Source: a candidate division WOR_3 bacterium SM23_42 (GTDB taxonomy: Bacteria > Hydrothermota > Tepidihabitantia > SM23-42). Taken from it: a stretch of DNA of 64,000 bases. Position 1 is the first letter of the stretch. Every line of letters begins with the position of its first letter. The notes under the pieces were generated by a model, which saw only the letters and a list, made by a program, of their open reading frames with translations, had not been told where the DNA came from and searched no databases. The position numbers and the translations under genes are program-made. Location: the NCBI GenBank assembly GCA_001303785.1, contig LJUJ01000004.1, forward strand, positions 64,845 to 128,844. The letters are read 5' to 3'. This document shows, one piece after another, positions 2,028 through 30,066 of this stretch.

Positions 2028-3365
2028 TTACATTTCCTCGATGAAGTCTGTTGAGATGTCGCCCGCTGCGTACTTTGGATGCTTCATTATTTTTTTGTGA
2101 AAGGGAATGGTGGTAGGGATCCCGTCAATCACGATTTCTTCAAGGGCACGATTCATTCGGGCTATCGCCTCGTCCCTTGAATTTCCATGACAGATAAGCT
2201 TACCGATTAGTGAGTCGTACTGACTCGGGATCACGTGCCCGGCAAAGATGTGGGTATCGAACCTTACCCCAATGCCTTGCGGCATATGAAAGAAAGAAAT
2301 CTTACCTGGCATGGGTACGAAGTTTCTGGCTGGGTCCTCGGCATTTATGCGACACTCAATCGCGTGACCGTGTAGCTCAACATCCTGTTGGTCGAATGCG
2401 ATTTTGTTGCCGAGTGCGATCTTGATTTGTTCCTTTACTATATCAACACCGGTTACCATCTCAGTTACCGGATGTTCGACCTGTATCCTCGTATTCATTT
2501 CCATGAAGTAGTAGTTCTTATCTTGGTCCATGAGAAACTCAATAGTGCCGGCCGATCGATAACCAATGCTCTGAGCTGCCTTCAATGCCGCTTCGATAAG
2601 CCTTTTCCTAAGGTTATCATCGACTGCCGGTGACGGCGATTCTTCAACCAGCTTCTGGTGACGTCGTTGGATTGAACACTCACGCTCGCCCAAGGCAACG
2701 ATTTTCCCGTGGTGATCGCCGAGAATCTGAACCTCGATATGGCGCGGTCGGTGGATAAATTTCTCTAAGTAGATCCTGTTGTCGCCAAATGCTGCCTTGG
2801 CTTCAGCCTGAGCGATTCGGAAACCGGCATCGAGTTCATCTTCATCGCGCGCCACGCGCATGCCTTTGCCACCGCCACCCGCCGCGGCTTTAAGAATCAC
2901 CGGGTATCCGATATTCCTGCAAAGCTTGCGGGCATCTTTTGCGTGTTCTATGTTACTTTTGCTGCCGGGTATGCCCTGCAGACCAGCTGCCTCCATGGTT
3001 TCTTTGGCCTGTATCTTGTCGCCCATCGTTCTGATGTGCGCGGGTGGCGGGCCGATAAAGATTATGCCGCACGATTCACATATCTCGGCGAATTCAGGGT
3101 TTTCGGCAAGAAAGCCGTAGCCTGGATGGATTGCCTTGGCACCGGTTATCTCGGCGGCACTGATTATTCTTGTGATGTTGAGATAACTTTCCTTACTTGG
3201 GGGAGGTCCAATGCAGACTGCTTCGTTGGCGAGACGGGCATGTAAAGATTCCGCATCTATCTCCGAATAGATGGCAACTGTTTTCAGATTTAGCTCATTA
3301 GCGGCACGTATGATGCGCAGGGCTATTTCGCCTCGGTTAGCAATGAGAATCTTCTCAAATTTCAT
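2028..3365 (-). CDS. accC: acetyl-CoA carboxylase biotin carboxylase subunit
   Basis: 445 aa. MKFEKILIANRGEIALRIIRA..., ATP-grasp motifs (GGGGKGMRV, EMNTRIQVEHPVTE) and a biotin carboxylase C-terminal domain. Confidence 0.95.
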   Translation of the reverse strand: MKFEKILIANRGEIALRIIRAANELNLKTVAIYSEIDAESLHARLANEAVCIGPPPSKESYLNITRIISAAEITGAKAIHPGYGFLAENPEFAEICESCGIIFIGPPPAHIRTMGDKIQAKETMEAAGLQGIPGSKSNIEHAKDARKLCRNIGYPVILKAAAGGGGKGMRVARDEDELDAGFRIAQAEAKAAFGDNRIYLEKFIHRPRHIEVQILGDHHGKIVALGERECSIQRRHQKLVEESPSPAVDDNLRKRLIEAALKAAQSIGYRSAGTIEFLMDQDKNYYFMEMNTRIQVEHPVTEMVTGVDIVKEQIKIALGNKIAFDQQDVELHGHAIECRINAEDPARNFVPMPGKISFFHMPQGIGVRFDTHIFAGHVIPSQYDSLIGKLICHGNSRDEAIARMNRALEEIVIDGIPTTIPFHKKIMKHPKYAAGDISTDFIEEM

Positions 3366-17269: not shown

Positions 17270-17321
17270 CGGATGATACGCATGTGCCTTGGGATATGCT
17301 CGGAATTGCGTGACAAAGACA

Positions 17322-17349
17322 TTGACATGCTATCTTATATGGGTATAAT
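17322..17349 (+). promoter_or_regulatory. sigma-70-type promoter (TTGACA-N16-TATAAT) upstream of the HU/IHF gene
   Basis: TTGACA at 17322-17327, TATAAT at 17344-17349. About 85-nt leader. AGGAGG SD before the ATG at 17434. Confidence 0.4.
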
Positions 17350-17433
17350 ACGCTGTTACTGTTCAGGTGTGTTGTTTTCAGCTCGGGGCAGTTTTATATT
17401 TCAAATATAAGGGTATATTGACAGCAAGGAGGA

Positions 17434-17733
17434 ATGATGCGAAGGGAATTTTTGATCGAAAAAATCGCCGAGAAGATTGGCCCAGCGTATACTAAAACAG
17501 ATATCGAAAAGTTGATTGATACGTTTTTGGATACGCTCTTTGAAATCTTGATACAAAACAAACGAGTCGAGTTGCGTAGGTTTGGAACTTTCGAGCTCCG
17601 AAAGAGGCCGGGCCGGAGTGCAAAGGCCCCCAAGAGTGGCAAGGTTTATACTCTTGCTGATCGATATGTACCATTCTTCCGTCCATCAAAGATATTCAAG
17701 AATATGGTTCAGGAAAGGACAAGGCCAGAGTAG
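17434..17733 (+). CDS. HU/IHF-family DNA-binding protein
   Basis: 99 aa. RRFGTFELRKRPGRSAKAPKSGKVYTLADRYVPFFRPSK matches the HU/IHF beta-arm (GFGxFxxRxRxxRxxRNPxTGxxxxIxxxxxxxFKxGK). Confidence 0.85.
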   Translation: MMRREFLIEKIAEKIGPAYTKTDIEKLIDTFLDTLFEILIQNKRVELRRFGTFELRKRPGRSAKAPKSGKVYTLADRYVPFFRPSKIFKNMVQERTRPE

Positions 17734-17880
17734 TCCTGAAACGTAATAGATCCGGAATACAACAATCTGATATCAGATAGCTAACAGTTGATATCAACAA
17801 ACCCCTGCAAGATGTCGGATTACTGATAGCTGATGATCGATACTGATATCTGTTATCCGTTGTCCGCTATCCGTTGATAG

Positions 17881-19464
17881 TTATCCGTTTAAGATCTTTT
17901 CGACTTCTTCCTTGTCAACATCCATGACATATGGAATTCCAGATATATTCGCAGCGTCTTTGGTCAGTGACGCGATGTCATCACGCGAGATATGTTTTAG
18001 GGCAAACTTACGATTGCCGGTCATTAGCTGTTTCAGGCCTTGGCCCATTCGTTCGACATATGTATAAACGCCAAGTGCTCCGGTTGGAACGCGGTCAAAA
18101 TCCTTACCCAATTCTTTTTTCAACTTTGATGCGGTTACGAATATCTCTTCTTTCTTGTTGCCAAAGCGCTCAATAAATACTGGAATTTCGTCCTCATCGA
18201 TCTTCTTGCCGATCGTTTTGCCGACCATAGCCGCACACAGAGGTCCGCGCGCCATACCGACAATCTTCGTGTACGGAGCACCCAGGGCGAGGGCCTTGAA
18301 GATTTGATCCTCGAAAGCGATACCACCAGCAAACGCGAGAGCTGGTACGTATTCACCCTTCTTTGCCAATTTATCTGTGTAGAAATAAGTCAAAGAATGA
18401 ATCTCGACCGGTGGCATACCCCATTCATTCATCATGTGCCAGGGACTCATACCAGTCCCGCCACCTGCTCCGTCCACAGTCAACAAGTCGATCTTCGCTT
18501 TCGAAGAGTATTTTACGGCTCGCGCCAGGTCGGCCGGACGGTAGGCACCCGTTTTCAAGAATACATACTTGGCTCCGGCTTTACGCAATTCCTCAACTCG
18601 TTTCATGAATGATTCTTCTTCGACCATGCCGATGCGTGAGTGTCGTTCAAATTCGGTAAATGTTTTGTGCTCAAACGCAGTGATGACATCGGGATCAAGC
18701 GGGTCCGGTAATACTACATAACCACGTTTTCTCAATATCTGTGCTTTCTTTAGATCTTTTATCTTCACCTCACCACCGATATCCTTGGCGCCTTGCCCCC
18801 ATTTCAACTCGACCGTTTCGACTCCGAGCTTTCGTATGGCAAATTCTTGCACACCGAGTCTCGTGTCTTCCACATTTGCCTGGACAATGATCATGCCATA
18901 GCCATCCCTTTGCCAGTCCTTGTAGAGTCGCACTCGGTTTTCAAGGTCGGGAGCCTTGAGTATTTTGTTATTCCTGATTTCACTCTTCATGTCCATGGCG
19001 ACAACATTTTCGCCTATTGTCAACATGGCTCCGGATAAGGCAGTGCCGATTGCCAATCCTTGCCAGTTATTCTTGGCGACATTAGTCGACCCTAGACCTG
19101 GAACGACCATCGGGAACTTCAGCTTGATGCCGTTGCCTGCGCCGAATCTCTGCTCGATATTGACGTTCGGAAAGATTGCCTTATCTGGATCAGCCTCGAT
19201 GCCGAAAGCACCAACCGCCGTGCCCATAATATTAAAATGAGAATAATCGACTGGATAGTTCTTCTCGGCGGCGGCGGTCAGTATGCCGAATGGTTGTGGG
19301 TATATTACCTCATGTCCGCGAATAGCAGATTTTCCAATTTCGCACATACCGATACACCCATCAACACACGTAACGCACATTCCGCTCAACGGAACAATAG
19401 AATCTTCGGTTCTGTTCTTTGTCAATGTTGCTGCTGAAGCATTCATTCTTGATAATGAAGGCAT
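17881..19464 (-). CDS. glutamate synthase-family FMN-binding protein (GltB central-domain-like), N-terminal Cys4 motif
   Basis: 527 aa. VDGAGGGTGMSPW and the surrounding TIM-barrel region resemble the FMN/FeS domain of the glutamate synthase large subunit (archaeal split type). N-terminal CVTCVDGCIGMC (CxxCxxxCxxxC). Good SD (GAAAGGAGAG) before the ATG. Lacks the amidotransferase and GXGXG domains. Confidence 0.8.
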   Translation of the reverse strand: MPSLSRMNASAATLTKNRTEDSIVPLSGMCVTCVDGCIGMCEIGKSAIRGHEVIYPQPFGILTAAAEKNYPVDYSHFNIMGTAVGAFGIEADPDKAIFPNVNIEQRFGAGNGIKLKFPMVVPGLGSTNVAKNNWQGLAIGTALSGAMLTIGENVVAMDMKSEIRNNKILKAPDLENRVRLYKDWQRDGYGMIIVQANVEDTRLGVQEFAIRKLGVETVELKWGQGAKDIGGEVKIKDLKKAQILRKRGYVVLPDPLDPDVITAFEHKTFTEFERHSRIGMVEEESFMKRVEELRKAGAKYVFLKTGAYRPADLARAVKYSSKAKIDLLTVDGAGGGTGMSPWHMMNEWGMPPVEIHSLTYFYTDKLAKKGEYVPALAFAGGIAFEDQIFKALALGAPYTKIVGMARGPLCAAMVGKTIGKKIDEDEIPVFIERFGNKKEEIFVTASKLKKELGKDFDRVPTGALGVYTYVERMGQGLKQLMTGNRKFALKHISRDDIASLTKDAANISGIPYVMDVDKEEVEKILNG

Positions 19465-19530
19465 ATTTTTCTCTCCTTTCGCTACTGATGACAGATAACT
19501 GATAACAGATGACTGCTTGGCATAGAGTGA

Positions 19531-19944
19531 TCAGCCATTATCAAGTCTGTCAAATATTTCTGTTTCATGTTTTTCACGTACTGACTGAATCAGATTAAAC
19601 AGCATACCACAGAGATCATTGTAGTCTTTGCTTAATCTGCGGTATGACTCTTTGTTTTCAAGCGATCCAGTTTCAAATAAATAATCTAAATGTTCAATTG
19701 TTTCTTGCGATGATGCATATGCGAGCGAGAGATAACGTAGATATTCGTTCTTATAGTGCCTCAAGGAAAAACCTTCAACGATGTTGCTGGAAACTGATTT
19801 AGACGACCCTCTTATTTGGCTTCCTTCTTCGTATAATTCGAATCGAGGGAGGCTTAAAGATATCTCATGAATTTCCAGTGCAAGCCTATGTGCTTGTTGA
19901 TAGACCTTGAGGTTCCGGTATCCTGTTTGTTTCTGGTGTTTCAT
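19531..19944 (-). CDS. four-helix-bundle protein (TIGR02436-type, '23S rRNA intervening-sequence protein' family)
   Basis: 137 aa. YRNLKVYQQAHRLALEIHEISLSLPRFELYEEGSQIRGSSKSVSSNIVEG is the signature of this family. The gene exactly fills the gap between the NuoG-like and GltB-like genes and is flanked by imperfect inverted repeats. Confidence 0.8.
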   Translation of the reverse strand: MKHQKQTGYRNLKVYQQAHRLALEIHEISLSLPRFELYEEGSQIRGSSKSVSSNIVEGFSLRHYKNEYLRYLSLAYASSQETIEHLDYLFETGSLENKESYRRLSKDYNDLCGMLFNLIQSVREKHETEIFDRLDNG

Positions 19945-19955
19945 ACAGTTATCCG

Positions 19956-20657
19956 TTATCTCTTATCTGACTTCTTCTGGTCCGGCCGTCCTTCGCATGT
20001 GCCGCAGTCACCCGTCGTAGCCATCCAGCATTGGTAATCTTCGTGGGCCTCGATACAGGTCGGTTCAAGAGAAAGACAGCCGCTGCACAAGTCGGTCATA
20101 GCATCTGGCCCCTGGCACCGCAGTTGGCATGCTGGACAAACATAGATGCATCCGCCACACAGGCGACACTCTTCGGACTTGATGTTAAAGGGAGTCTCGA
20201 TCTTTTTCTTATTGCCGCGGTTTGTAAAACCTATCGCACCCCCTTGCATTTGTTCCTTGCACATTCGAACACAGCGGCCGCAGAGCACGCAGTCTTCATG
20301 ACGCGCAGGGAAACGAACTGAGGTTACATGAAATTTGGACGCCAGGTCCTGAATCGTTTTTGATTGTGGACAGATTGAAACCAGTAATTCGATCATCATC
20401 TTGCGAGCATTGACTACGCGTTTTGTATTTGTGCGCACGATGAGCCCTTCTTCAACGGGATAGGTGCACGAGCTTACCAATTTGCTGTTCTCTCCTTTGT
20501 CTATTTCGACAAGACACAGACGGCAGCCACCGTAGGGTGATAATCCTTCGTAATAACAGAATGTTGGTATCTCAATACCGTAGAATTTGCAGGCTTCGAG
20601 AATGGTCGATCCTTCTTGAATCTGGACTTCGAGACCGTTCAGAATGAAGTTTATCAT
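19956..20657 (-). CDS. NuoG-N-terminal-like iron-sulfur protein: 2Fe-2S, His-ligated 4Fe-4S, 4Fe-4S; no H-cluster or molybdopterin domain (StnC/HydA-N-like)
   Basis: 233 aa. 2Fe-2S cysteines (CYYEGLSPYGGCRLCLV...SSC), HxxxCxxCxxxxxC (HEDCVLCGRCVRMC), CRLCGGCIYVCP, and a C-terminal Cys-rich tail. Confidence 0.8.
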   Translation of the reverse strand: MINFILNGLEVQIQEGSTILEACKFYGIEIPTFCYYEGLSPYGGCRLCLVEIDKGENSKLVSSCTYPVEEGLIVRTNTKRVVNARKMMIELLVSICPQSKTIQDLASKFHVTSVRFPARHEDCVLCGRCVRMCKEQMQGGAIGFTNRGNKKKIETPFNIKSEECRLCGGCIYVCPACQLRCQGPDAMTDLCSGCLSLEPTCIEAHEDYQCWMATTGDCGTCEGRPDQKKSDKR

Positions 20658-23600
20658 TTTTGCTCCTTTTCATCTTCATCTCTTACTTCTAGATCACATC
20701 TCAAGCATCTCTTTGCTTCTTTGATTGCTGCACTTTTTTTGAGCCCAAGGTCTACTTCATTGAAATTCTTCGCACGCTTGCGAGGGTCGAGTTTCCAGGT
20801 TACTTGCCGTGTACTTTCCAATGTTTCCTTTACCGTCAACTTGACTGGTTCGACGTAGATTGATGGTCTAGTCACTCTATACTCAAACTTGATTTCCTTA
20901 TCGCTTAGATACTGGTCAATGGCTTTGGCCGCTTTTTTGCCGTCGGCCATTGCGTCAATAACCGAACTGGGACCGCGTATCGCATCACCGCCCGCAAAGA
21001 CTCCCGGAATATTGGTTGCGAGTGTTTCTTCATTTACGACAAATGTATTCCAACCCGTTATTTCGAAATTGTGATCCTTCTTCAAGAAAGAAATATCGGG
21101 CTGCTCGCTGATAGCCGAGATCAGAGTATCCAACTCAAATACCGATTCGGATCCCTTAATTGGTATCGGACGACGCCGTCCGCTTTGGTCAACAGCCCCG
21201 AGTTCCATCCGTGTACACTTCACACCCGCAACGCGGCCGTCTTTCATGACGATTTCAGTGGGTGCGGTGAGGAATTGTATATTGATCCCTTCTTCAAGTG
21301 CGGCTTCTATCTCTTCCGCATATGCGGGCATTTCGTTCCTCGTTCTGCGATAGATGATTGTGACATCGTCTACTTGCGGGAGTCGGTTAGCGGCGCGAGC
21401 TGCATCGACAGCTGAATTACCGCCGCCGATTACACCAATCCTGGCGCCAATATTGGTTTTTTCGCTCAGACTTTGCTTGGTGAGAAATTCCATTGCCGGT
21501 ACTACACCCGCTGTATCTTCGTTCGGTATTCCCAATTTTATGCTTTTGTGTGCACCGATCGCAATATACACGGCTTTGTAACCCTGTTTAAATAGCTGAT
21601 CCAGTGTAAAATCGCGACCCAGTTTCTGATTAGTCATGACCTCCGCCCCGGCGCGGACTACCCGATCGATGTCCTCCTTTAATGCTTTTTTTGGAAGCCG
21701 ATAAGCTGGAATGCCGACGGCAAGCATGCCTCCGGCAACCGGCAGTGCCTCAAAAACAGTCGAAGCATAGCCTCTGCATGCCAGATCATGCGCAGCCATT
21801 AGGCCGGACGGTCCAGACCCGATTATCGCGACCTTGGCACCAGACGGTTTACGCCTCTTGGATGTTCGTTTTCTAGTGCTACTGTGCTCAATGGCCGCGC
21901 GCTTCAGGGCTCGAATCGAAATTGGTTTGCCACCTTGCCCAGCACGGCACTTTGTTTCACATGGGTGATGGCAAACGCGAGCGCAGATATTGAGCAGTGG
22001 GTTGTCCTTCAGGATAATATCGTATGCCTTATCAAATTGTCCGTGAGCGATATACGCAATGTATTGAGGTGCTTCTGTGTCAATCGGACATGTATGCTGA
22101 CACGGCGAGGAGATGATATGCTTGCACACAACTGCAGGACATCTCTTGTATTTTATGTGTGCCTGGTATTCGTCCCTGAAATATCTGAGAGTGCTGAGTA
22201 CGGGATTGGCTGCGGTTTGCCCCAACCCGCACATTGAAGCATCTTTGGTCGCGACTGCGAGTTCCTCCAGTAATGGGATATCCTCAGGACGCCCTCTGCC
22301 TTTGGTAATCTTATCGAGTATCTCCCAAATTCGCTGCGTGCCTTCACGACACGACAGACACTTGCCGCAAGATTCGTCACGTAGAAAGTTCATGAAGTAT
22401 TTCGCCACATCGACCATGCATGTGTCTTCGTCCATGACAATCATGCCGCCCGAACCCATCATCGAGCCTGCTTGTTTCAGACTTTCGTAGTCAATTGTAA
22501 GATCAAGGAGATTTTCGGGTATGCAACCGCCAGATGGACCCCCGGTCTGGACAGCCTTAATTTTCTTATTATTGGGTATTCCACCACCAATTTCGTAGAT
22601 GATATCTTTCATGGTGATGCCCATCGGGACTTCCACGAGACCCGTATTGCTAATTTTGCCTACGAGGGAGAAGATTTTCGTACCCTTGCTACCTTCAGTA
22701 CCGATCGCTGAATACCAATCGGCACCACGTAGAATAATGTGGGGTACGTTCGCCCACGTTTCAACGTTGTTTATGTTAGTCGGTTTTCTCCACAATCCTT
22801 GTTTTACAGGATATGGCGGACGTTGTTTTGGGATGCCAATCTTACCTTCTATGGCTGCGAGTAATGAGGTTTCTTCTCCGGATACGAATGCACCGGCGCC
22901 TCTTTTTACTTCAATCGAAAAATCAAAACCGGTGTGGAGCACATTCTTACCAAGTAGTCCATATTCCTCTGCCTGCTCTATTGCGATTTTGATTCTCCTC
23001 AAAGCGAGAGGGTATTCTGTACGTACATAAATGAAACCTTTTGCAGCCTCGATTGCCCGCGCTCCGATGATCATGCCTTCCAGAACCGCGTGGGGATCTG
23101 CTTCGAGTATGCTGCGATCCATGAAGGCACCGGGATCACCCTCGTCTGCGTTGCACACCACATACTTCGAATTTCCTGCAGTCTTATGGCACAGCTCCCA
23201 TTTGAGCCCGGTTGGAAACCCTGCACCTCCGCGGCCTCTTAGGCCGGCATCTTTGACTTCTTTTATGATATCTTCAGGAGTCATGTCAGTTAATGCTTTT
23301 TCGAGTGCCCGGTAGCCATCAAAGGCAATATACTCGTCAATATTTTCCGGATCGATTCGCCCACGGTTTCTTAGTACGATCAGACGTTGATGTTTGAAAA
23401 ATCCTATGTCCATCATTCTAGGTATTGGCGCAGCTTCGGTTGGCGGTACATACATCAGTTTCTTGACCGGCCTTCCCTTAATGAGGTGTTCTTCAACGAG
23501 AAGGGGGATGTCTTCCCGCTTCAGGCGTTGATAGAATATTCCGTCCGGTTGCACAACAACAATCGGCCCTCTTTCGCAAAAACCGTTGCATCCTGTGGAG

Positions 23601-23731
23601 ATGATTGCCACTTCATTCTGCAATTTTCTTTTCGTGATTTCTTTCTCTAACGTTGTCTTGATTTCAAAAGAGCCTGCCGCCACACAGCCTGTCCCGGCAC
23701 AGACGAGTAGATGCGTGCGATACTGTTTCAA
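20654..23731 (-). CDS. fusion protein: thioredoxin-like 2Fe-2S domain + NuoF-like FMN/NADH-binding 51-kDa subunit + GltD-like FAD/NAD(P)H oxidoreductase with FeS (HydB/NuoF-GltD fusion as in Stn/Nfn-Bfu-type complexes)
   Basis: 1025 aa. N-terminus CAGTGC...CNGFC. NuoF motifs GRGGAGFPTGLKWE, ADEGDPGAFMDRS, CGKCLSCREG. GltD-like N-terminal FeS cysteines (CPAVVCKHIISSPCQHTCP, CARVCHHPCETKC). Rossmann fold KVAIIGSGPSGLMAAHDLA and a second dinucleotide site IGVIGGGNSAVD. FAD motif VFAGGDAIRG. Confidence 0.85.
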   Translation of the reverse strand: MKQYRTHLLVCAGTGCVAAGSFEIKTTLEKEITKRKLQNEVAIISTGCNGFCERGPIVVVQPDGIFYQRLKREDIPLLVEEHLIKGRPVKKLMYVPPTEAAPIPRMMDIGFFKHQRLIVLRNRGRIDPENIDEYIAFDGYRALEKALTDMTPEDIIKEVKDAGLRGRGGAGFPTGLKWELCHKTAGNSKYVVCNADEGDPGAFMDRSILEADPHAVLEGMIIGARAIEAAKGFIYVRTEYPLALRRIKIAIEQAEEYGLLGKNVLHTGFDFSIEVKRGAGAFVSGEETSLLAAIEGKIGIPKQRPPYPVKQGLWRKPTNINNVETWANVPHIILRGADWYSAIGTEGSKGTKIFSLVGKISNTGLVEVPMGITMKDIIYEIGGGIPNNKKIKAVQTGGPSGGCIPENLLDLTIDYESLKQAGSMMGSGGMIVMDEDTCMVDVAKYFMNFLRDESCGKCLSCREGTQRIWEILDKITKGRGRPEDIPLLEELAVATKDASMCGLGQTAANPVLSTLRYFRDEYQAHIKYKRCPAVVCKHIISSPCQHTCPIDTEAPQYIAYIAHGQFDKAYDIILKDNPLLNICARVCHHPCETKCRAGQGGKPISIRALKRAAIEHSSTRKRTSKRRKPSGAKVAIIGSGPSGLMAAHDLACRGYASTVFEALPVAGGMLAVGIPAYRLPKKALKEDIDRVVRAGAEVMTNQKLGRDFTLDQLFKQGYKAVYIAIGAHKSIKLGIPNEDTAGVVPAMEFLTKQSLSEKTNIGARIGVIGGGNSAVDAARAANRLPQVDDVTIIYRRTRNEMPAYAEEIEAALEEGINIQFLTAPTEIVMKDGRVAGVKCTRMELGAVDQSGRRRPIPIKGSESVFELDTLISAISEQPDISFLKKDHNFEITGWNTFVVNEETLATNIPGVFAGGDAIRGPSSVIDAMADGKKAAKAIDQYLSDKEIKFEYRVTRPSIYVEPVKLTVKETLESTRQVTWKLDPRKRAKNFNEVDLGLKKSAAIKEAKRCLRCDLEVRDEDEKEQK

Positions 23732-23923
23732 ACTAACCTCCTAGCTGTAAAAGGTTACGTTTAATGGTTAGGGTCACGAGGCCCGCTTCGGATGAAAAAG
23801 CAACGTTTCTTGGCGATACTGACATCACGGGATTCGTTGAAGGGCAACGGTCCAAGTGTGTAGACATCACCGTGAGACGTCTAACGATACTGGCTTCGTA
23901 GCCATTACCGTAACCGATCCTTT

Positions 23924-24307
23924 TCAGTGCGTCCTCTCACTGCCAATCGCAAGGGCGTACTCATTGACAATATCACCTTTGACAATATGCCTTTCCAGGA
24001 TTTTTCTCATTTTCTCTGGCGTCAGGTCAACGTATTTAACTGGTGGTTTGCCGGTAATTTCCACTGTGGCCATAGGTTCTCGGCTGCAAAGTCCTGCGCA
24101 ACCCGATGTCGTGACAATCACATCATCGAGTTTCTTCTTCCGGATATCCTTGAGTAGTCCTGTGAGCACATCACGCGCACCGGCAGCAATGCCGCATGTT
24201 CCCATATGCACGGTAACCTTTGCCCGTGCCTTGCCTTGGCGTAGGACTGCAGTCCTTCTGACCTTGTCACGTATTTTTTCCAAATCGCCAATCTTTAATT
24301 TCTTCAC
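23924..24307 (-). CDS. NuoE-like thioredoxin-fold [2Fe-2S] ferredoxin (HydC/24-kDa subunit-like)
   Basis: Cys spacing CGIAAG...C...CAGLC, typical of NuoE/HndA. The ORF-track start at 24346 is a TTG overlapping the upstream gene by 80 nt. A GTG at 24307 preceded by AAGGAG-N6 is preferred. Confidence 0.75.
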   Translation of the reverse strand: MKKLKIGDLEKIRDKVRRTAVLRQGKARAKVTVHMGTCGIAAGARDVLTGLLKDIRKKKLDDVIVTTSGCAGLCSREPMATVEITGKPPVKYVDLTPEKMRKILERHIVKGDIVNEYALAIGSERTH

Positions 24308-24860
24308 TTTTTGCTCCTTTCTGAATTGCCTGTAATCCCTCCTCAATTTGTTCTCTTAGAAACAGGATTATTTCAGGGTCGTTGATTGCCACTCCGTTAA
24401 GTCTCTTTTTGATTTCTTTGGTGCTAAAGATAAACTCTTGGTCGCCCTTACGGTGACGGTATTTGAAATCTGCTTTGGGGCTGCTACCCGCAATGCAGGT
24501 AGTAATCGTCTCGGCCATGTTTCCGAGAGGCTTTCGATCGATGTGATCATATACGAACCTCGCGGTGATTCTTGTGCCCTTACCTGGTTTCGATCTAACG
24601 TCGAGGCTGCCGGCGGCTTCTTTTGTAGCCTGAGCGAGCATTGAAAGCCCCAAACCAACTCTTCTCGTTCCTTTCGTTGTATAGAACGGATCAATCGACT
24701 TGGTGAGGGTCTCTTTGTCCATTCCTCTACCATCGTCATTGATCTTGATGAGTAGCAAATTCCCGACGATGTCCTCTTCGATCACAATCTCAATGTTCGT
24801 TGCCCCAGCAGCCACAGAATTTTCGATGATGTCCAATATGTGGAGCGAGAGGTCTTCCAT
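24267..24860 (-). CDS. histidine-kinase-like ATPase (HATPase_c) domain protein, kinase-like component of the hydrogenase-associated regulatory module
   Basis: 197 aa. N-box/G-box-like INDDGRGMD, GLGLSMLAQ. No DHp or sensor domain. Confidence 0.6.
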   Translation of the reverse strand: MEDLSLHILDIIENSVAAGATNIEIVIEEDIVGNLLLIKINDDGRGMDKETLTKSIDPFYTTKGTRRVGLGLSMLAQATKEAAGSLDVRSKPGKGTRITARFVYDHIDRKPLGNMAETITTCIAGSSPKADFKYRHRKGDQEFIFSTKEIKKRLNGVAINDPEIILFLREQIEEGLQAIQKGAKSEEIKDWRFGKNT

Positions 24861-24862
24861 GT

Positions 24863-25612
24863 CTAAGCCTCCAGCATCACGGAACGTCCTTGCTTAACTT
24901 TGAATGCTTTGCCTAGTTCTTCGATGGTCGGTGCAGCAATCCTGAAGCGAGCGATTACCTTGCCGATTTCGTCCAGACTGTGAGCATCAGATGACGATAT
25001 CAGTGAGAACTTCTCTATTTGAGGCGCCATCTTGGCTGCCTCGGCATGGGTGATTGAAGAGGAAATCTCCAAGGCATCAAGTTCGAGACCCTCAGGTATG
25101 AATCCCAATTGACCGATGATACTGTAGGCTTCCCGGTCGATGTGAGAAGCAATGGCCAAGCCGTCCAACCGGTGAATCTCTTGAACGGTGTCGCTAATCG
25201 ACAGATTTGTTGCGCCGATCAACAATCTGTGGTTGTAACCCTCGACTTCATCGAATTCATTGGCAATGATCTGCTCACCGAACAACTTTTCTTTGTTCTC
25301 GCCGGGTGCAAGGTTCTGATATACTAATTGCTGCATTATCAGAGCAGTATCGACGTCTTTAAATAATCCGATAACGTGAACTTCTTCCGAACTGGTGATT
25401 TCCATGCCAGCAAGCACGGTTAGACTCGTGTCTCGAGCCGCGTTCGCTGCGGCCCTTAGGTTTTCCGCTGAGTTATGGTCACATATTGCGATCATATCGA
25501 GTTTCTTGGCAAGCGCGGCCTTGACTACTCTCCTGGGGGACATTGTCAAATCCGCGCAGGGTGATAGACACGTATGAATGTGCAGATCCGCACGATAGCA
25601 TCGCAACATCAA
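24863..25612 (-). CDS. PHP (polymerase/histidinol-phosphatase) family metal-dependent phosphoesterase
   Basis: 249 aa. ADLHIHTCLSPCAD, ICDHNSAENL, IASHID and SSDAH histidine/aspartate metal-binding motifs. Confidence 0.75.
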   Translation of the reverse strand: MMLRCYRADLHIHTCLSPCADLTMSPRRVVKAALAKKLDMIAICDHNSAENLRAAANAARDTSLTVLAGMEITSSEEVHVIGLFKDVDTALIMQQLVYQNLAPGENKEKLFGEQIIANEFDEVEGYNHRLLIGATNLSISDTVQEIHRLDGLAIASHIDREAYSIIGQLGFIPEGLELDALEISSSITHAEAAKMAPQIEKFSLISSSDAHSLDEIGKVIARFRIAAPTIEELGKAFKVKQGRSVMLEA

Positions 25613-25968
25613 CGCTTTCCGCTGATACCCATTTCATATAGTCTGCCTACCAATTCGAAAGCCGGTGAATCACTTGTCATTATTGGCAGGCCTTCGGATT
25701 CGGCCTTTTCTATAGTCTCCTTTTCTGGCATACGTCCATTGATCATCACGATCCCTGCGATTTCTTTTAACATTGCCACAGCTACGACATTCGGATGCAC
25801 TTGCAAAGTTATCCAGACATCACCCTTCTTACTATTTGCCATCACATCACTCAGAAGGTCACTCGAGTAACCTCCGCATACTTCTTTGTCTAGTTGTTGC
25901 TCTCCACATGCTACTTGGAGATTAAGCGATTTGACTATCTCGGTAAGCTTCATCTTGCTTTTCTCCAT
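25609..25968 (-). CDS. DRTGG domain protein
   Basis: 119 aa. Pattern G..SDLLSDVM...GDVWITLQVHPNVVAVAMLKEIAGIVMINGRMPE is typical of the stand-alone DRTGG domain found with CBS/phosphatase regulators. Start may be the internal M (MKLTEI). Confidence 0.6.
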   Translation of the reverse strand: MEKSKMKLTEIVKSLNLQVACGEQQLDKEVCGGYSSDLLSDVMANSKKGDVWITLQVHPNVVAVAMLKEIAGIVMINGRMPEKETIEKAESEGLPIMTSDSPAFELVGRLYEMGISGKR

Positions 25969-27248
25969 TTTTTTTCACCTTGCGATTCATTTCTGCTAAT
26001 GTATATGCAATCCTCTGGTTTTGCTTCACCACGCACGATATCTTCAGCCAGGGTCTGACAATCTGGAGCGCCGCATACCCCGCAATCGGTGCCGGGAAGC
26101 TTGCCAACCAGTTCCTCTTTCATTTTCAATTTTTCGATCGCTACGCCACGGTCTGCGTCAAGTGGTGGAAAGGACTTGGGCTCAACCGCCCAAGCAAATG
26201 AAAAGAAATTTTCTTTGTAGAGTTTCTGCACTAATTCGGTATTCACTCTTCTCTTTCCGCCAAAATGCCTTAGAAGTCTTAGGACATTACTCTTGGCGAC
26301 AAATCTGTTCTCTACGGTAAGCGGACCACCAATACATCCATCTGGGCATACCAGACATTCGAGATACTCGATATTACGCAATCTCCCTGATTCCACATCT
26401 TCGAGAATGCGGATCGTATCCAGCAAACCAGACACCGAAACAGTGTTGGAGTATTTGAGTCCCCTGATTTCACCACCCTCAAAGGCCCAGCCAATTCCGA
26501 CGCCGCTAATGCGTGTTTGTGTCTGCATCATCAACAGCCCGGCCTCTTGCTTCAGTTTCATCATTACTTTGTTGTATATTTCTCGTATGGAAATTGCGCC
26601 ATCAAGATGCGATTTTGCCATACTTTCGGGATGATTAATCGACACCATCTTGGCCGAACACGGCGTGATGTGGATGATACCGATTTCTTCAGCCTTGAGC
26701 TCCTCCTGTTTTGCTGTCTCACTACGCAAATTCTTTGCTGCGATTTCGCGAGGCGGCTCGAGTGGCAAAATGTTGCCACAGAGACTTGGGAACAGCCTCT
26801 GCACAAGCCGCACAACAACCGGGCATATTGATGAGATTATGGGTCGGGGAGATCTGTTCTCGTCGAGGTACTCTTCAGTGGCGACGCTCATCATTTCGCA
26901 GACCAATGCCTCGTCATACACATGGTCAAAGCCGATTTCTTTGAGTACGGTCAGAATCTCAGAAGGCATTGATTGTTGGCCAAATTGAGTGTAAAGTACA
27001 GGCGAAGGTAACGCGATTTTGAATTTGAAGCGATTGAGATCAGAGAGGAGAGTCGTTAGTGGTATTATAGCGCTGTGGGGGCACGCCCTGAGACATTCGC
27101 CACAGTCAATGCATCTTTCGTAATTGATATGTGCCTTCTGTTCGCGGACGCGTATTGCCTTTGTTGGACACACCTTCATACAAGTGACGCAACCAATGCA
27201 CTTTGCCTTATCAACTTTTATGGAGTGAAAGTATGTTTGTTCAGCCAT
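25950..27248 (-). CDS. [FeFe]-hydrogenase-like protein of the putative sensory type (HydS-like): 2x 4Fe-4S ferredoxin + H-cluster domain with altered motifs + C-terminal Cx2Cx4Cx16C; no PAS domain
   Basis: 432 aa. CIGCVTCMKVCP and CIDCGECLRACP. L1 is SSICP (canonical TSCCP; first Cys replaced by Ile). L2 is TPCSAK (MPCxxK). L3 is EYLECLVCPDGCIGGP (ExMACxxGCxxGG). C-terminal CGVCGAPDCQTLAEDIVRGEAKPEDC. Flanked by kinase-like, DRTGG and PHP genes. Confidence 0.8.
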   Translation of the reverse strand: MAEQTYFHSIKVDKAKCIGCVTCMKVCPTKAIRVREQKAHINYERCIDCGECLRACPHSAIIPLTTLLSDLNRFKFKIALPSPVLYTQFGQQSMPSEILTVLKEIGFDHVYDEALVCEMMSVATEEYLDENRSPRPIISSICPVVVRLVQRLFPSLCGNILPLEPPREIAAKNLRSETAKQEELKAEEIGIIHITPCSAKMVSINHPESMAKSHLDGAISIREIYNKVMMKLKQEAGLLMMQTQTRISGVGIGWAFEGGEIRGLKYSNTVSVSGLLDTIRILEDVESGRLRNIEYLECLVCPDGCIGGPLTVENRFVAKSNVLRLLRHFGGKRRVNTELVQKLYKENFFSFAWAVEPKSFPPLDADRGVAIEKLKMKEELVGKLPGTDCGVCGAPDCQTLAEDIVRGEAKPEDCIYISRNESQGEKKWRKAR

Positions 27249-27720
27249 TCTTTCCGTTCAGAAGAATCTTAATTTCCAAGCTTGTACCTTGCCCTACTTT
27301 TGAAGTTATTTGGAAAACATCAGAGTTCTTCTTTATATTAGGCAGACCCATTCCAGCACCAAATCCCATTTCTCTCATTTCTTCTGTTGCGGTCGAGAAC
27401 CCGGGTTTCATTGCCAACTCAATATTCTCTATGCCTGGCCCTTTATCGTCGATTATCAGTAATATGTTGTCCTGATATACGTTTATTTTCATCGTGCCGT
27501 GTTGGGCATACATCACTACATTCATTTCTGCTTCATATGCAGCAATAGCGATGCGTCTTATTATATCACTATTGATACCAATCTCCCGCAGAGTGTTTCT
27601 TATCTTACACGACGATTCGCCAGCATTGACGAAGTCACCACCTTGTATTTCGAATTCTTGCTGGAACAAAACCCTATTTTTCATTCCTTTTCTCTTCATC
27701 TCCATATGTGGACGCACCAC
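27241..27720 (-). CDS. RsbW/SpoIIAB-like anti-sigma-factor-type Ser/Thr kinase (HATPase_c only)
   Basis: Roughly 145-159 aa. IDDKGPGIEN, GFGAGMGLPNI. Track start 27720 is a GTG; internal ATGs at 27705, 27699 and 27684 are alternatives. Confidence 0.65.
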   Translation of the reverse strand: MVRPHMEMKRKGMKNRVLFQQEFEIQGGDFVNAGESSCKIRNTLREIGINSDIIRRIAIAAYEAEMNVVMYAQHGTMKINVYQDNILLIIDDKGPGIENIELAMKPGFSTATEEMREMGFGAGMGLPNIKKNSDVFQITSKVGQGTSLEIKILLNGKNG

Positions 27721-28063
27721 TTACGCCATTCGTATATAGTATACCGCATACTTCGTACATCTTCAATTTTGTTGTCAGGAGAGGAATGTTACATTGTTGA
27801 GCTAGTTCGATTGTCTCAGCCGATGGATTCTTGCCCCGCACGAAGACGATTGCTCCAATCCCCGCGATTTCACAAGTTCTCACAACTTGTTTGTTAGTAA
27901 GTCCGGTGATGAGCAAGGTGTTGCGATCTGAGAAGGGTTGGGAAAATGCAAGAACATCACTCATCAAATCTGATGCCTTGGCAAATTTTATATCAATGCT
28001 GTGCGCTTCTTGTTCTGAGACTAATTCTGCGTTCAGCAGTTCTCTAATTTGGGAAAGGATCAT
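27674..28063 (-). CDS. DRTGG domain protein
   Basis: 129 aa. DLMSDVLAFSQP...TLLITGLTNKQVVRTCEIAGIGAIVFVRGKNP. Second stand-alone DRTGG in the module. Confidence 0.6.
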   Translation of the reverse strand: MILSQIRELLNAELVSEQEAHSIDIKFAKASDLMSDVLAFSQPFSDRNTLLITGLTNKQVVRTCEIAGIGAIVFVRGKNPSAETIELAQQCNIPLLTTKLKMYEVCGILYTNGVSGASTYGDEEKRNEK

Positions 28064-28066
28064 CTG

Positions 28067-28567
28067 CTACTTTTTTCTTTTTCGAGTTACCTTTCTTTTG
28101 TGTTTCTTTTTCTTATATTGATCGATTATTTGGTCAACCTTCTGGACAGTGGACTGTCCATAATACTTACCATCGACCACAACTATGGGTGCCAAAGCGC
28201 AAGCGCCCAAGCAGTTAACACTTTCCAACGTGAAGTTCTCATCTGCAGTTGTGCAACCGGGTTCGATTTTAAGCTTGTTCTTCACTCGATCCAGGACCGT
28301 TGGTGCACCTCGCACGTGGCATGCTGTGCCGAGGCACACGGTTACGACATGTTTGCCCCTGGGTGTGAGGCTAAAGGCTCGATAGAATGTCGCGACACTG
28401 TAGACATCGATCAGGGGAATGCACAATCTATTTGATATCAGTCTCAGTGCTTCAGGAGGGAGCCAATTGTATTTCTCTTGTACATCTTGTAGAACTGAAA
28501 TTAACGATGATTTTTCATTGTGATATCTTTCAACTATTTTTGTCAGATCTTGCGCGTTGATTTTCAT
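28067..28567 (-). CDS. NuoE-family [2Fe-2S] protein (NADH dehydrogenase 24-kDa subunit / HydC / HoxE-like)
   Basis: 166 aa. CLGTACHVRGAP...CLGACALAPIVVVDGKYY is the canonical NuoE cysteine pattern. Lys-rich C-terminal tail. First gene of the operon, directly behind the promoter. Confidence 0.85.
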   Translation of the reverse strand: MKINAQDLTKIVERYHNEKSSLISVLQDVQEKYNWLPPEALRLISNRLCIPLIDVYSVATFYRAFSLTPRGKHVVTVCLGTACHVRGAPTVLDRVKNKLKIEPGCTTADENFTLESVNCLGACALAPIVVVDGKYYGQSTVQKVDQIIDQYKKKKHKRKVTRKRKK

Positions 28568-28590
28568 ATGACTCCTTTCTCGTGGTCATT

Positions 28591-28618
28591 ATTATACCTA
28601 TTTTTCCGCGATAGTCAA
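28591..28618 (-). promoter_or_regulatory. near-consensus sigma-70 promoter (TTGACT-N16-TATAAT) of the NuoE/HydS-like operon
   Basis: Minus strand reads ...ctgtatgTTGACTatcgcggaaaaataggTATAATaatgaccacgagAAAGGAGtcatATG. ATG is at 28567. Confidence 0.45.
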
Positions 28619-28705
28619 CATACAGATTGGTTGTTTTATGTTGCATTATGCATAAATTGGGTTTGGAAATCAAGCATATATGATTCAATAGGGCGTTCGC
28701 AGGCC

Positions 28706-28735
28706 AAAAAAAAGCCGGGTTCAATCGAACCCGGC
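28706..28735 (-). terminator. rho-independent terminator of gdh (9-bp GC-rich stem, 4-nt loop, U8 tract)
   Basis: Plus strand aaaaaaaaGCCGGGTTCaatcGAACCCGGC. On the minus strand the hairpin is followed by TTTTTTTT, 22 nt after the gdh stop. Confidence 0.7.
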
Positions 28736-28756
28736 CTCTCGGGATTAATAGAACAA

Positions 28757-30040
28757 CTAGTTTCTACCTATTCTACCAAACATACGGACAGAATCTGCCA
28801 CGCGCTGTACGGCCAATATATAGGCGGCATGACGCATATCGGTTCTGTGTTTGTCGGCGGCTCGTACAACATCCCAGAATGCTCTTTGCATCATCCGGTA
28901 ACACCTTTCGTTGACCTCTTCTTCGCTCAGGAAATATTTCTGTAAATCCTGAATCCACTCTAGGTACGATACAGTAACGCCACCAGCATTAGCTAAGATG
29001 TCGGGGATTACAAAGATTCTTTTAGCGTTCAATATCTCATCTGCTTCATTGGTTGTTGGCCCATTGGCGCCTTCGCATATCACTCTTGCTTTGATCTTAT
29101 CAGCATTCTTAGAATTTATCATGCCTTCGATTGCGCAGGGGAGAAGGATGTCACACTTCAGATTGATAAGTTCTTCATTCATGATGGAATCATGTTGCTT
29201 AAATCCAGATACGGTTTTTGCCCTTGCAACATAATTGTCCAGTTCAGGGATATTTATGCCGTTTCTGTTATATATGCCGCCATAAATGTCAGTTATCGCA
29301 ACAATCTTACAGCCATAATTGTATAAGAGTTGGGCAATAGAGGCACCAACGTTGCCATAACCTATGATGGCAATTCGCTTGCCTTCGAGCGGGTATTCGA
29401 GGTGTTTGGACGCCTCGATCAATGCATAATACATACCAAGACCGGTAGCACCGCTTCTGCCCTTTGAACCCCCGCATTCTAATGGCTTGCCTGTCACTAC
29501 CGCAGGCTCGAAATGTCCGACATATCTGCTGTATGCATCACATATCCATGCCATGGTTCGGGCATTGGTCCAGACGTCTGGCGCAGGGATATCTTTGTTC
29601 GGTCCAATTATATCCTTGATTGAATATGTGTATTCCTTGGTCAGTTTTTCCAGGTCGCTTTCGGTCATTTCGGGCGGATTGCAGATGACTGCACCCTTAG
29701 CACCACCTAAGGGTAAATCCAGCACTGCAGTCTTCCAAGTCATCCAGGCAGCGAGTGCTTTACATTCACTCAAGGAAGCATCCGGGCTGTATCTTATGCC
29801 GCCTTTACCCGGGCCTCGCGTGGTGCTGTGCTGAACCCGATAACCAGTATATGTCTCAACCTTGCCGTCGTCGCGTGTGATTGTCATGTGCACTGTGAGT
29901 TCTTTTTCCGGAAACTTCAAGCGATTGTAAATCCAGGGTTCGAGGTCGAGCGTGGATGCAGCTCTTTCATACTGCACTGTCGCCTCGATGAACGGATCGT
30001 ATTTCTTCTGCCTAAGTTTTGCGTCATTTATTTTTACCAT
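28757..30040 (-). CDS. gdhA: NAD(P)-dependent glutamate dehydrogenase
   Basis: Glu/Leu/Phe/Val dehydrogenase motifs (LGGAKGAVICNP; Rossmann IIGYGNVGAS). ORF track starts at 30052 (MEAFM...). The second ATG at 30040 has a GGAGG SD at optimal spacing and is preferred. Confidence 0.9.
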   Translation of the reverse strand: MVKINDAKLRQKKYDPFIEATVQYERAASTLDLEPWIYNRLKFPEKELTVHMTITRDDGKVETYTGYRVQHSTTRGPGKGGIRYSPDASLSECKALAAWMTWKTAVLDLPLGGAKGAVICNPPEMTESDLEKLTKEYTYSIKDIIGPNKDIPAPDVWTNARTMAWICDAYSRYVGHFEPAVVTGKPLECGGSKGRSGATGLGMYYALIEASKHLEYPLEGKRIAIIGYGNVGASIAQLLYNYGCKIVAITDIYGGIYNRNGINIPELDNYVARAKTVSGFKQHDSIMNEELINLKCDILLPCAIEGMINSKNADKIKARVICEGANGPTTNEADEILNAKRIFVIPDILANAGGVTVSYLEWIQDLQKYFLSEEEVNERCYRMMQRAFWDVVRAADKHRTDMRHAAYILAVQRVADSVRMFGRIGRN

Positions 30041-30066
30041 GAAAGCCTCCATCTGTCGCTATATAG

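Follow-up and report, generated by a model that had tools for sequence, protein, structure and literature searches.

The locus described here raises the question of how a small gene for a four-helix-bundle (4HB) protein came to lie between two cistrons of an oxidoreductase operon, and what the repeats on both of its sides signify. The window, i.e., the whole stretch of DNA that was analyzed, comprises 64,000 nucleotides of a contig of the candidate division WOR_3 bacterium SM23_42 (LJUJ01000004.1). All genes of the operon region are encoded on the minus strand (Table 1). The first-pass annotation had stated that the 4HB ORF exactly fills the gap between the NuoG-like stop and the GltB-like start, which is approximately right: the 4HB ATG follows the NuoG-like stop after 11 nt, and the GltB-like ATG follows the 4HB stop after 66 nt. 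Nearly all of these nucleotides belong to the repeat arms or to the Shine-Dalgarno sequence of the GltB-like gene, which begins 8 nt past the end of the 3' arm. Occupied junctions have this conserved Shine-Dalgarno sequence beside the 3' arm, and it was also seen in those empty junctions that were inspected.

Table 1. Features of the operon region and of its repeat arrays, in transcript order (coordinates refer to the window)
Feature	Position	Strand	Remark
NuoF-GltD fusion	20654-23731	-	first in transcript order
NuoG-N-terminal-like Fe-S protein, 233 aa	19956-20657	-	second in transcript order
5' arm, about 4 tandem 7-nt units, mRNA sense GAAGUCAGAUAAGAGAUAACGGAUAACUG	19946-19974	-	repeat search
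4HB gene, 137 aa	19531-19944	-	PF05635 / TIGR02436; third in transcript order
3' arm, about 4 tandem 7-nt units, reverse complement of the 5' type, mRNA sense CAGUCAUCUGUUAUCAGUUAUCUGUCAUC	19487-19515	-	repeat search
Shine-Dalgarno sequence AAGGAGAG of the GltB-like gene	19471-19478	-	inspection of junctions
GltB-like FMN protein	17881-19464	-	fourth in transcript order; convergent HU gene beyond it
Forward heptad array without ORF: CGGATAA CTATCAA CGGATAG CGGACAA CGGATAA CAGATAT	17843-~17889	-	motif search, TRF
Inverted heptads (..GATCATC AGCTATC AGTAATC CGACATC .. GTTAGCTATCTGATATCAG)	17768-17842	-	partner of the forward array 17843-~17889

The flanking inverted repeats that had been noticed at first reading are real. 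A repeat search revealed two arms of 29 nt each, which are 79% complementary and 430 nt apart, so that arms and 4HB gene together form a cassette of about 490 bp. When the 70 nt upstream were compared without gaps to the 100 nt downstream, the best complementarity was 20/24 (z=7.9), and this score was reached in 0/200 shuffles. The flank strings given by the first-pass annotation are present at 19485-19515 and 19945-19971, and only their outer coordinates were off, by 2 and 4 nt. What had been overlooked is that both arms are tandem 7-nt arrays with the unit GATAACN (TRF period 7). In the mRNA sense the 5' arm reads CAGATAA GAGATAA CGGATAA CTG, followed by the ATG after a gap of at most 1 nt; in the reading frame of known heptamer repeats this becomes TAAGAGA TAACGGA TAACTGT right before the ATG. 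No Shine-Dalgarno sequence was seen between the 5' arm and the 4HB ATG. The NuoG-like gene ends within the same arm, with its last codons and its stop codon (TAA, 19956-19958), which had also escaped notice. A motif search for heptad pairs in the 64 kb yielded 5 matches, compared to 0.13 expected, and all of them lie in three intergenic spots of the same operon.

A third array pair, which follows the GltB-like stop, had likewise been missed. Its forward array begins within the GltB-like stop codon (TAA, 17881-17883). The pair as a whole (17768-~17889) encloses no ORF and is situated at the 3' end of the operon, with the convergent HU gene opposite. The predicted fold of this ORF-less region (17740-17900) was weak, with z values from -0.9 to -2.1. 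ORF-less array pairs after the GltB-like stop were likewise seen in most WOR-3 relatives. The combination of types can differ: locus L021 has a type-B cassette together with type-A solo arrays, and L023 has the reverse combination.

Neither a sigma-70-like nor a terminator-like site was detected on the coding strand of the element. The internal promoter that had been suggested for the cassette is thus not supported, but this is weak evidence because promoters of the WOR-3 phylum may be of another type. An rRNA or Rfam match was absent from the region 17300-20300, and a permissive E-value added only a chance match to isrD outside the element. PADLOC gave no defence-system match, and no transposase, integrase or reverse transcriptase was recognized among those ORFs within about 10 kb that were scanned with Pfam.

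The membership of the encoded protein in the 4HB family is clear. It scored 86 bits against PF05635 (cut-off 33.8, E=2.4e-24) and 86.2 bits against TIGR02436 (cut-off 24, E=1.6e-24). A conserved motif of the family is RxxxSxxxNxxE (PMC3936711). S50, N54 and E57 of this motif are present in the window protein, and a Gly occupies the position of Arg46, which is near-invariant (at least 90% conserved in alignment A1). The pI is 6.3 for the window copy and has a median of 7.06 in the subfamily, and thus the proteins are not basic. The nearest relatives with solved structures are XCC0516 (2GSC) and 2RLD, and each of the two entries contains five chains.

The orthologous junctions of other genomes were used to analyze the status of the cassette. 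Eighty genome loci with the GltB-like gene were fetched, 73 of which hold both flanking genes. In 60/73 of these operons, other phyla included, the junction is shorter than 200 nt (median 26 nt), and L030 and L032, which are closely related, likewise have an empty junction. This makes the cassette a derived feature, an insertion relative to most orthologous operons. The window type is confined to one WOR-3 subclade. An identical 4HB protein is encoded on 15 contigs from several samples, in the same context in all among the matches listed, and homologues with 86%, 80% and 70% protein identity occupy exactly the same junction, including one in a complete WOR-3 genome. At the occupied orthologous loci the gene has kept its place and the inverted heptad arrays are retained, so that the case of orthologues without repeats, which had been named as contrary evidence, was not encountered. 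The arm sequence and the number of units drift, and arm length differs by 7-nt steps among the orthologues.

Among the orthologues dN/dS ranges from 0.07 to 0.20 with a median of 0.11, and comparisons to the more distant ones show saturation of synonymous sites. In its lineage the window cassette is thus an old one that has been passed on vertically, under purifying selection. The first-pass annotation had proposed that this copy arrived as a small mobile or IVS-like element (IVS, intervening sequence of 23S rRNA). The insertion and the IVS-like anatomy are borne out by the empty junctions and by an Azospirillum IVS described below. A recent arrival is unsupported, because the orthologues reach saturated synonymous sites at dN/dS values of 0.07-0.20.

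The same junction is occupied by other elements in other lineages. The complete WOR-3 genomes at L021 and L022 have a distantly related 4HB gene with GACGCAA-type heptads upstream and GCGTNNN heptads downstream, and a third 4HB type is present in L028. L024 is a hybrid, in which a left array of the window type is combined with the 3' part and the right flank of the L028 type. A truncated and decayed copy of the cassette is found in L025. In L087, which belongs to the Bacteroidales, yet another 4HB gene is flanked by GGCAGTT and its complement, and L064/L075 and L085 carry ORF-less inverted heptad hairpins. The junction has thus taken up or exchanged other types of 4HB genes and arrays.

The generality of this architecture was analyzed with 80 metagenomic loci containing relatives of the 4HB subfamily of the window, which were reduced to 72 non-redundant loci, the window included; 250 other genes from these metagenomic loci served as control set. 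A flank complementarity score of at least 12 was obtained for 41/72 4HB loci and for 0/250 control genes (Mann-Whitney p=9e-19), and a z value above 3 for 49/72 and 10/250, respectively. The mean complementarity was 12.44 for cognate arms and 7.72 for non-cognate arms (0/10000 permutations). The best period was 7 in 65/72 upstream and in 53/72 downstream flanks, and the arrays had a median size of 4.1-4.4 units per arm. They share a core, GAT in 35/47 upstream arrays and ATC in 34/42 downstream arrays, and the other four positions vary by locus. A minority of loci has direct instead of inverted arrays (L181 and L182, and, by inspection of the flanks, also L114, L115 and L139). The architecture with inverted heptad flanks thus recurs in the majority of the 72 loci sampled from the subfamily.

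Both neighbours were co-oriented with the 4HB gene in 50/54 cases (93%), compared to 59% of the control genes (p=4e-7), and the median gaps to the neighbouring genes were 59 and 45 nt. Such a compact, co-oriented placement would be expected of a unit without promoter that depends on transcription of its host. One pair of cassettes is 97% identical, and its flanks are 83-87% identical. The cassettes of L120 and L144 are 80% identical, and the one flank that could be compared, the upstream flank, is unrelated. This pair and L134/L148 were the only, and weak, cases of the same cassette in a different context among the 72 metagenomic loci. No relatives of the 4HB cassette were found on viral contigs, and therefore a phage vector is not supported.

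We regard it as probable, albeit far from certain, that the element is an operon-borne cassette of the IVS type (about 490 bp), which is transcribed by read-through and looped out by pairing of its arms. According to this proposal the cassette would have no promoter of its own and would be transcribed from the host operon. In the transcript the arms would pair to an imperfect duplex of about 25-29 bp and loop out the 4HB cistron. The stop codon upstream would thereby be brought near the Shine-Dalgarno sequence downstream, in imitation of the ancestral 26-nt spacer, and so the insertion could be harmless. The duplex is probably a substrate of RNase III, and its cleavage would release the 4HB message, by analogy with the IVSs of Coxiella, Leptospira and Salmonella. 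The processing site that the first-pass annotation had suggested for the element is plausible only by analogy with the cutting of IVS stems by RNase III (PMC4990558). The 5' array is rich in purines, directly precedes the ATG and has no Shine-Dalgarno sequence; it probably also serves as translation-initiation region.

RNA folding gave results on both sides of this proposal. When the ORF was replaced by a short linker, the arms folded with -30.2 kcal/mol (z=-6.2, 0/200 shuffles) into a stem of 7 + 10 + 5 bp with small internal loops, which represented 46% of the ensemble. For the whole region of 524 nt, the fold of minimum energy left the arms unpaired with each other; the 3' arm paired locally, and the overall z value was only -1.6. 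By energetics alone, the long-range stem is thus supported only in the construct of arms and linker. Among 14 orthologous cassettes the complementarity of cognate arms was 13.14, compared to 12.98 for non-cognate arms (P=0.39). There is therefore no fine-scale compensatory evolution, and it is the heptad type that stays. Mismatches compatible with G.U pairing outnumbered A.C mismatches (57 versus 32, p=0.011), a mild hint at pairing in the sense RNA; a transcription-linked C-to-T mutation bias could be an alternative source of this excess. The strict 7-nt period and the GAT/ATC core are not accounted for by a plain stem.

This periodicity and the GAT core hint at a periodic binder. The heptad arrays could be putative periodic RNA or DNA sites of an oligomeric binder, either the 4HB protein or a host factor, with a role in auto-regulation, translation control or propagation of the cassette, and the inverted symmetry would then be secondary. 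We hold this possibility, which is compatible with the stem model, only tentatively. The strict period of 7, the median of 4.1-4.4 units and the 3-nt core beside four variable positions fit to it, as do the direct-orientation loci, which still have arrays, and the retention by selection of the heptad type and not of particular base pairs. Furthermore, ORF-less array pairs are of the same heptad type as the 4HB cassette of their genome region, the solved relatives 2GSC and 2RLD have five chains each, the homologue Avd is essential to diversity-generating retroelements (PMC10053308), and a binding partner for start-codon heptamer repeats has been postulated (PMC4679880; bioRxiv 10.1101/2022.06.06.494920). 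However, the subfamily is not basic (pI 6.3 for the window copy, median 7.06), Gly replaces the near-invariant Arg46 in the window copy, and array type and protein type would co-vary just as well if the cassette moved as a whole. Movement of the DNA itself is at the heart of another alternative, in which the arms are terminal inverted repeats of a MITE-like or non-autonomous transposon with its enzyme encoded elsewhere and the 4HB gene as cargo. The patchy distribution with empty sites in close relatives would agree with it, and so would the occupation of one junction by different cassette types, the L024 hybrid of two of them, the cassette pair with 97% identity in flanks of 83-87%, and L120/L144 with 80% identical cassettes beside an unrelated upstream flank. 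Nevertheless, we consider it improbable: inspection revealed no target-site duplication beside the arms, arm length varies by 7-nt steps among orthologues, there is no transposase, integrase or reverse transcriptase within about 10 kb and no relative on viral contigs, and a co-orientation of 93% is unexpected unless selection heavily filters the insertions.

Two further explanations were considered. The 4HB protein could be an ordinary dedicated subunit or regulator of the oxidoreductase operon, and the repeats ordinary intercistronic hairpins. The gene is indeed kept in place across the WOR-3 subclade under purifying selection, but it is absent from 60/73 orthologous operons, distantly related 4HB types take its place in sister lineages, and the same family with its flanks is found in unrelated contexts, i.e., between accB and accC, between cas6 and cas4, and in 23S rRNA. 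Because of this phyletic pattern the explanation was rejected as highly improbable. Even less credence, close to none, is given to the idea that the complementarity arose by chance in intergenic sequence of low complexity and high A/T content. The short length of the arms, their imperfect match and their A/T richness would agree with such an origin, but the observed score was reached by 0/200 shuffles, a score of 12 by 0/250 control genes, and the 5 motif matches (0.13 expected) were all situated in the operon of the window; this explanation was rejected as well.

Known systems with single-gene units or repeats between genes differ from the window locus in several respects. Integron cassettes and REP/MITE repeats are likewise promoterless single-gene units or small palindromes between genes that are transcribed from the host. 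In contrast to them, the cassette of the window has no integrase nearby, no single attC and no target duplication, and heptad arms are present on both sides. An integron cassette was not supported, as there is no integrase among the scanned neighbours and the repeats lie on both sides instead of in one attC. Diversity-generating retroelements have an accessory protein, Avd (accessory variability determinant). This protein binds nucleic acid. It is essential for these elements and is a PF05635-like homologue (PMC10053308); the four-helix-bundle fold is homologous, and the crystallized relatives have five chains. In contrast, the window locus has neither a reverse transcriptase nor template/variable repeats, and the 4HB proteins are not basic. 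No reverse transcriptase was found in the scanned ORFs (about 10 kb), and the heptad arrays are the only repeats near the gene. The readings as diversity-generating retroelement, integron or transposon were rejected, as scans and inspection had revealed no reverse transcriptase, integrase, transposase or target duplication.

Intergenic heptamer repeats are known from Cyanobacteria as STRR. TAACTGA heptamers before start codons without Shine-Dalgarno sequence have been described in Beggiatoaceae, Cyanobacteria and Bacteroidetes (PMC4679880), and GGGAATC repeats, some as convergent pairs, in Xanthomonas (PMC4692102). The window arrays resemble them in that they are tandem 7-nt intergenic units with a forward array near a start without Shine-Dalgarno sequence and occur as convergent pairs. 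The unit GATAACT is a rotation of TAACTGA, and the 5' arm has the features of this class, i.e., at least two tandem units, in an intergenic region, in forward orientation and near a start without Shine-Dalgarno sequence. The difference lies in the interpretation: in those papers the repeats are seen as regulatory or G-quadruplex elements and the neighbouring genes are "hypothetical", and the papers examined draw no link to PF05635 genes or IVSs. In Xanthomonas, XCC0516 and its orthologues occupy the space between accB and accC and show the design of the window cassette, with GGGAATC units before and CATTCCC/GATTCTC units after the gene. Repeat #15 (GGGAATCGGGAGTGGAGAATCGGGAATC) in a supplementary table of PMC4692102 is placed between bccP and XCC0516, where it overlaps the XCC0516 start codon. 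In Pseudanabaena a 4HB gene is located between cas6 and cas4, and the family had earlier been reported within cas operons (PMC3936711). The 4HB genes of cas loci are consistent with cassette insertion into operon spacers, which would explain the reported CRISPR-cas "associations".

Two old puzzles, the role of the ORFs in 23S IVSs and the heptamer repeats beside start codons, may concern one element. The proteins of the IVS ORFs, like Avd, are members of a very large and uncharacterised family. It is conceivable, although rather unlikely, that PF05635 proteins and heptamer arrays (STRR, TAACTGA, GGGAATC, GATAAC and others) constitute one self-propagating system, with a ring-shaped protein that accommodates one unit with a GAU core per subunit. 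If this were true, gene and repeats would settle in the spacers of operons and in rRNA helices, and the ORF-less inverted arrays would be their remnants; the heptamer repeats' long-sought partner would be named and the IVS proteins would be assigned a function. The link directs attention to cleavage of the arms, to binding of the protein to the repeats and to effects on neighbouring cistrons. Xanthomonas offers a tractable model, as the structure of XCC0516 is solved and the gene lies between accB and accC. The cassettes are also relevant to annotators, because they remodel the C-termini of host genes and intercistronic regions.

A literature search for a connection of PF05635 genes with heptamer arrays found none; its coverage is incomplete, and an earlier description is possible. 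ORF-bearing IVSs, scattered 4HB genes and heptamer repeats are each known, and provisionally the connection between them appears to be new. With the same proviso, this applies to an IVS-type cassette outside rRNA and to heptad-array arms as a signature across the 4HB subfamily and the named examples.

The system closest to the window cassette is the 23S IVS. ORF-bearing IVSs reside in helix 45 of the 23S rRNA of Leptospira and Coxiella burnetii, and the Coxiella IVS has a length of 428-444 nt, a terminal stem of 28 bp, a PF05635 ORF and an RNase III cut within the stem (PMC4990558). A search of plasmids by tblastn, the matches of which were mostly cyanobacterial, revealed a further example on the Azospirillum lipoferum plasmid AZO_p2 (L183), where a 23S rRNA gene (Rfam LSU, 2173 bits) contains an unannotated 4HB ORF, which forms a genuine 23S rRNA IVS. 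It consists of a heptad array, the 4HB ORF and an inverse heptad array. Its arms, CAGAGGA CGGATGA CAGAGGA CGGAGGA and the complement, match at 31 of 36 nt, and their predicted fold (-63.4 kcal/mol) is a stem of 32 uninterrupted pairs. Arms built from heptads were not found described in the IVS papers examined. The window cassette and the 23S IVSs thus have in common a length of about 430-490 nt, complementary terminal arms of about 28-29 nt around a PF05635 ("S23p") ORF and, for the window cassette presumably, their being part of the host transcript; the Azospirillum IVS shares also the heptad build of the arms. The borders of the window cassette are complementary and able to form a stem, which is missing from the full-length minimum-energy fold, and the PF05635 ORF lies in the loop. 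In contrast to the IVSs, which lie inside helix 9, 25 or 45 of 23S rRNA, the cassette is situated between two protein-coding cistrons, its host is a protein-coding operon, and its stem is weaker (79% complementary). Cutting by RNase III belongs to the IVSs, and would apply to the window cassette by analogy alone. By its location the window cassette is no IVS; it most likely represents, within an operon, what the ORF-bearing IVSs represent within 23S rRNA.

The gene string into which the cassette is inserted (17881-30052) encodes a NuoE-like 2Fe-2S protein, two HATPase proteins, a HydS-like Fe-hydrogenase-domain protein, DRTGG and PHP proteins, a NuoF-GltD fusion, a NuoG-N-terminal-like protein, a GltB-like FMN protein and a glutamate dehydrogenase. 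It resembles a module for sensing or for electron bifurcation. The GltB-like protein has an identity of 72-76% across many phyla.

Features at the two ends of the host gene string
Feature	Position in the window	Strand	Location
Forward and inverted GATAAC-type heptad arrays enclosing no ORF	17768-17887	minus	3' end of the operon
Glutamate dehydrogenase gene	28757-30052		upstream in the host gene string

The four-helix-bundle (4HB) protein of the cassette differs from its relatives at codon 46 (19807-19809), which encodes Gly in the window and Arg in at least 90% of the relatives. This residue falls at R46 of the RxxxSxxxNxxE motif. A protein identical to the one in the window, including Gly46, is encoded on 15 contigs, and, thus, the exchange is not a sequencing error.

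Two metagenomic loci with relatives of the 4HB gene, L134 and L148, are 97% identical in the nucleotide sequence of the 4HB gene, whereas the flanking host DNA is just 83-87% identical. This difference may reflect an exchange of the cassette between related genomes. The NuoG|GltB junction of locus L069 (2628-2995) holds an insert of 366 nt. The insert lacks a clear ORF, and short GCAGTN-type repeats and the complement of these flank it; it could be either a non-coding element or what is left of a cassette after decay. In two other genomes, an Aegiribacteria MAG (L064) and a Pirellulales MAG (L075), the 3' end of the NuoG-like gene upstream of the GltB-like gene is near-identical, and so is a heptad hairpin, GGTGAGT / ACTCACC. 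The MAGs nevertheless carry the labels of different phyla, and this points either to recent transfer or to an error in binning.

In Nostoc sp. C052 (plasmid pC052_A, L180) the 4HB gene is surrounded by the inverted arrays GCAGAGGA / TCCTCTGC, the period of which is 8, not 7. Two loci, L181 and L182, are exceptions to the rule that the arrays are inverted. On the Pseudanabaena galeata plasmid pPg_01 (L181, 45062-47824), the 4HB gene has cas6 and cas4 on either side, and the arrays are direct: upstream of the gene there are about 15 units of CTAAAAG, and downstream of it about nine of CCAAAAG. In Oscillatoria (L182), the arrays are G-rich and both have the same orientation.

Two further period-7 arrays are present in the window: GAAATTC units at 1830-1887, after an ORF ending at 1810, and 4.4 copies of GAATTGC at 63348-63378, within the ORF 62041-63627. 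Remnants of GATAAC/TTATC-like heptads at about 1960-2020 adjoin the stop of the gene 2028-3365. The ORF-less array pair at the operon end begins within the stop codon of the GltB-like gene, and most WOR-3 relatives have comparable pairs downstream of this gene. Some of these pairs (L025, L028-L030) enclose a G+C-rich hairpin with T residues after it, a structure that looks like an intrinsic terminator.
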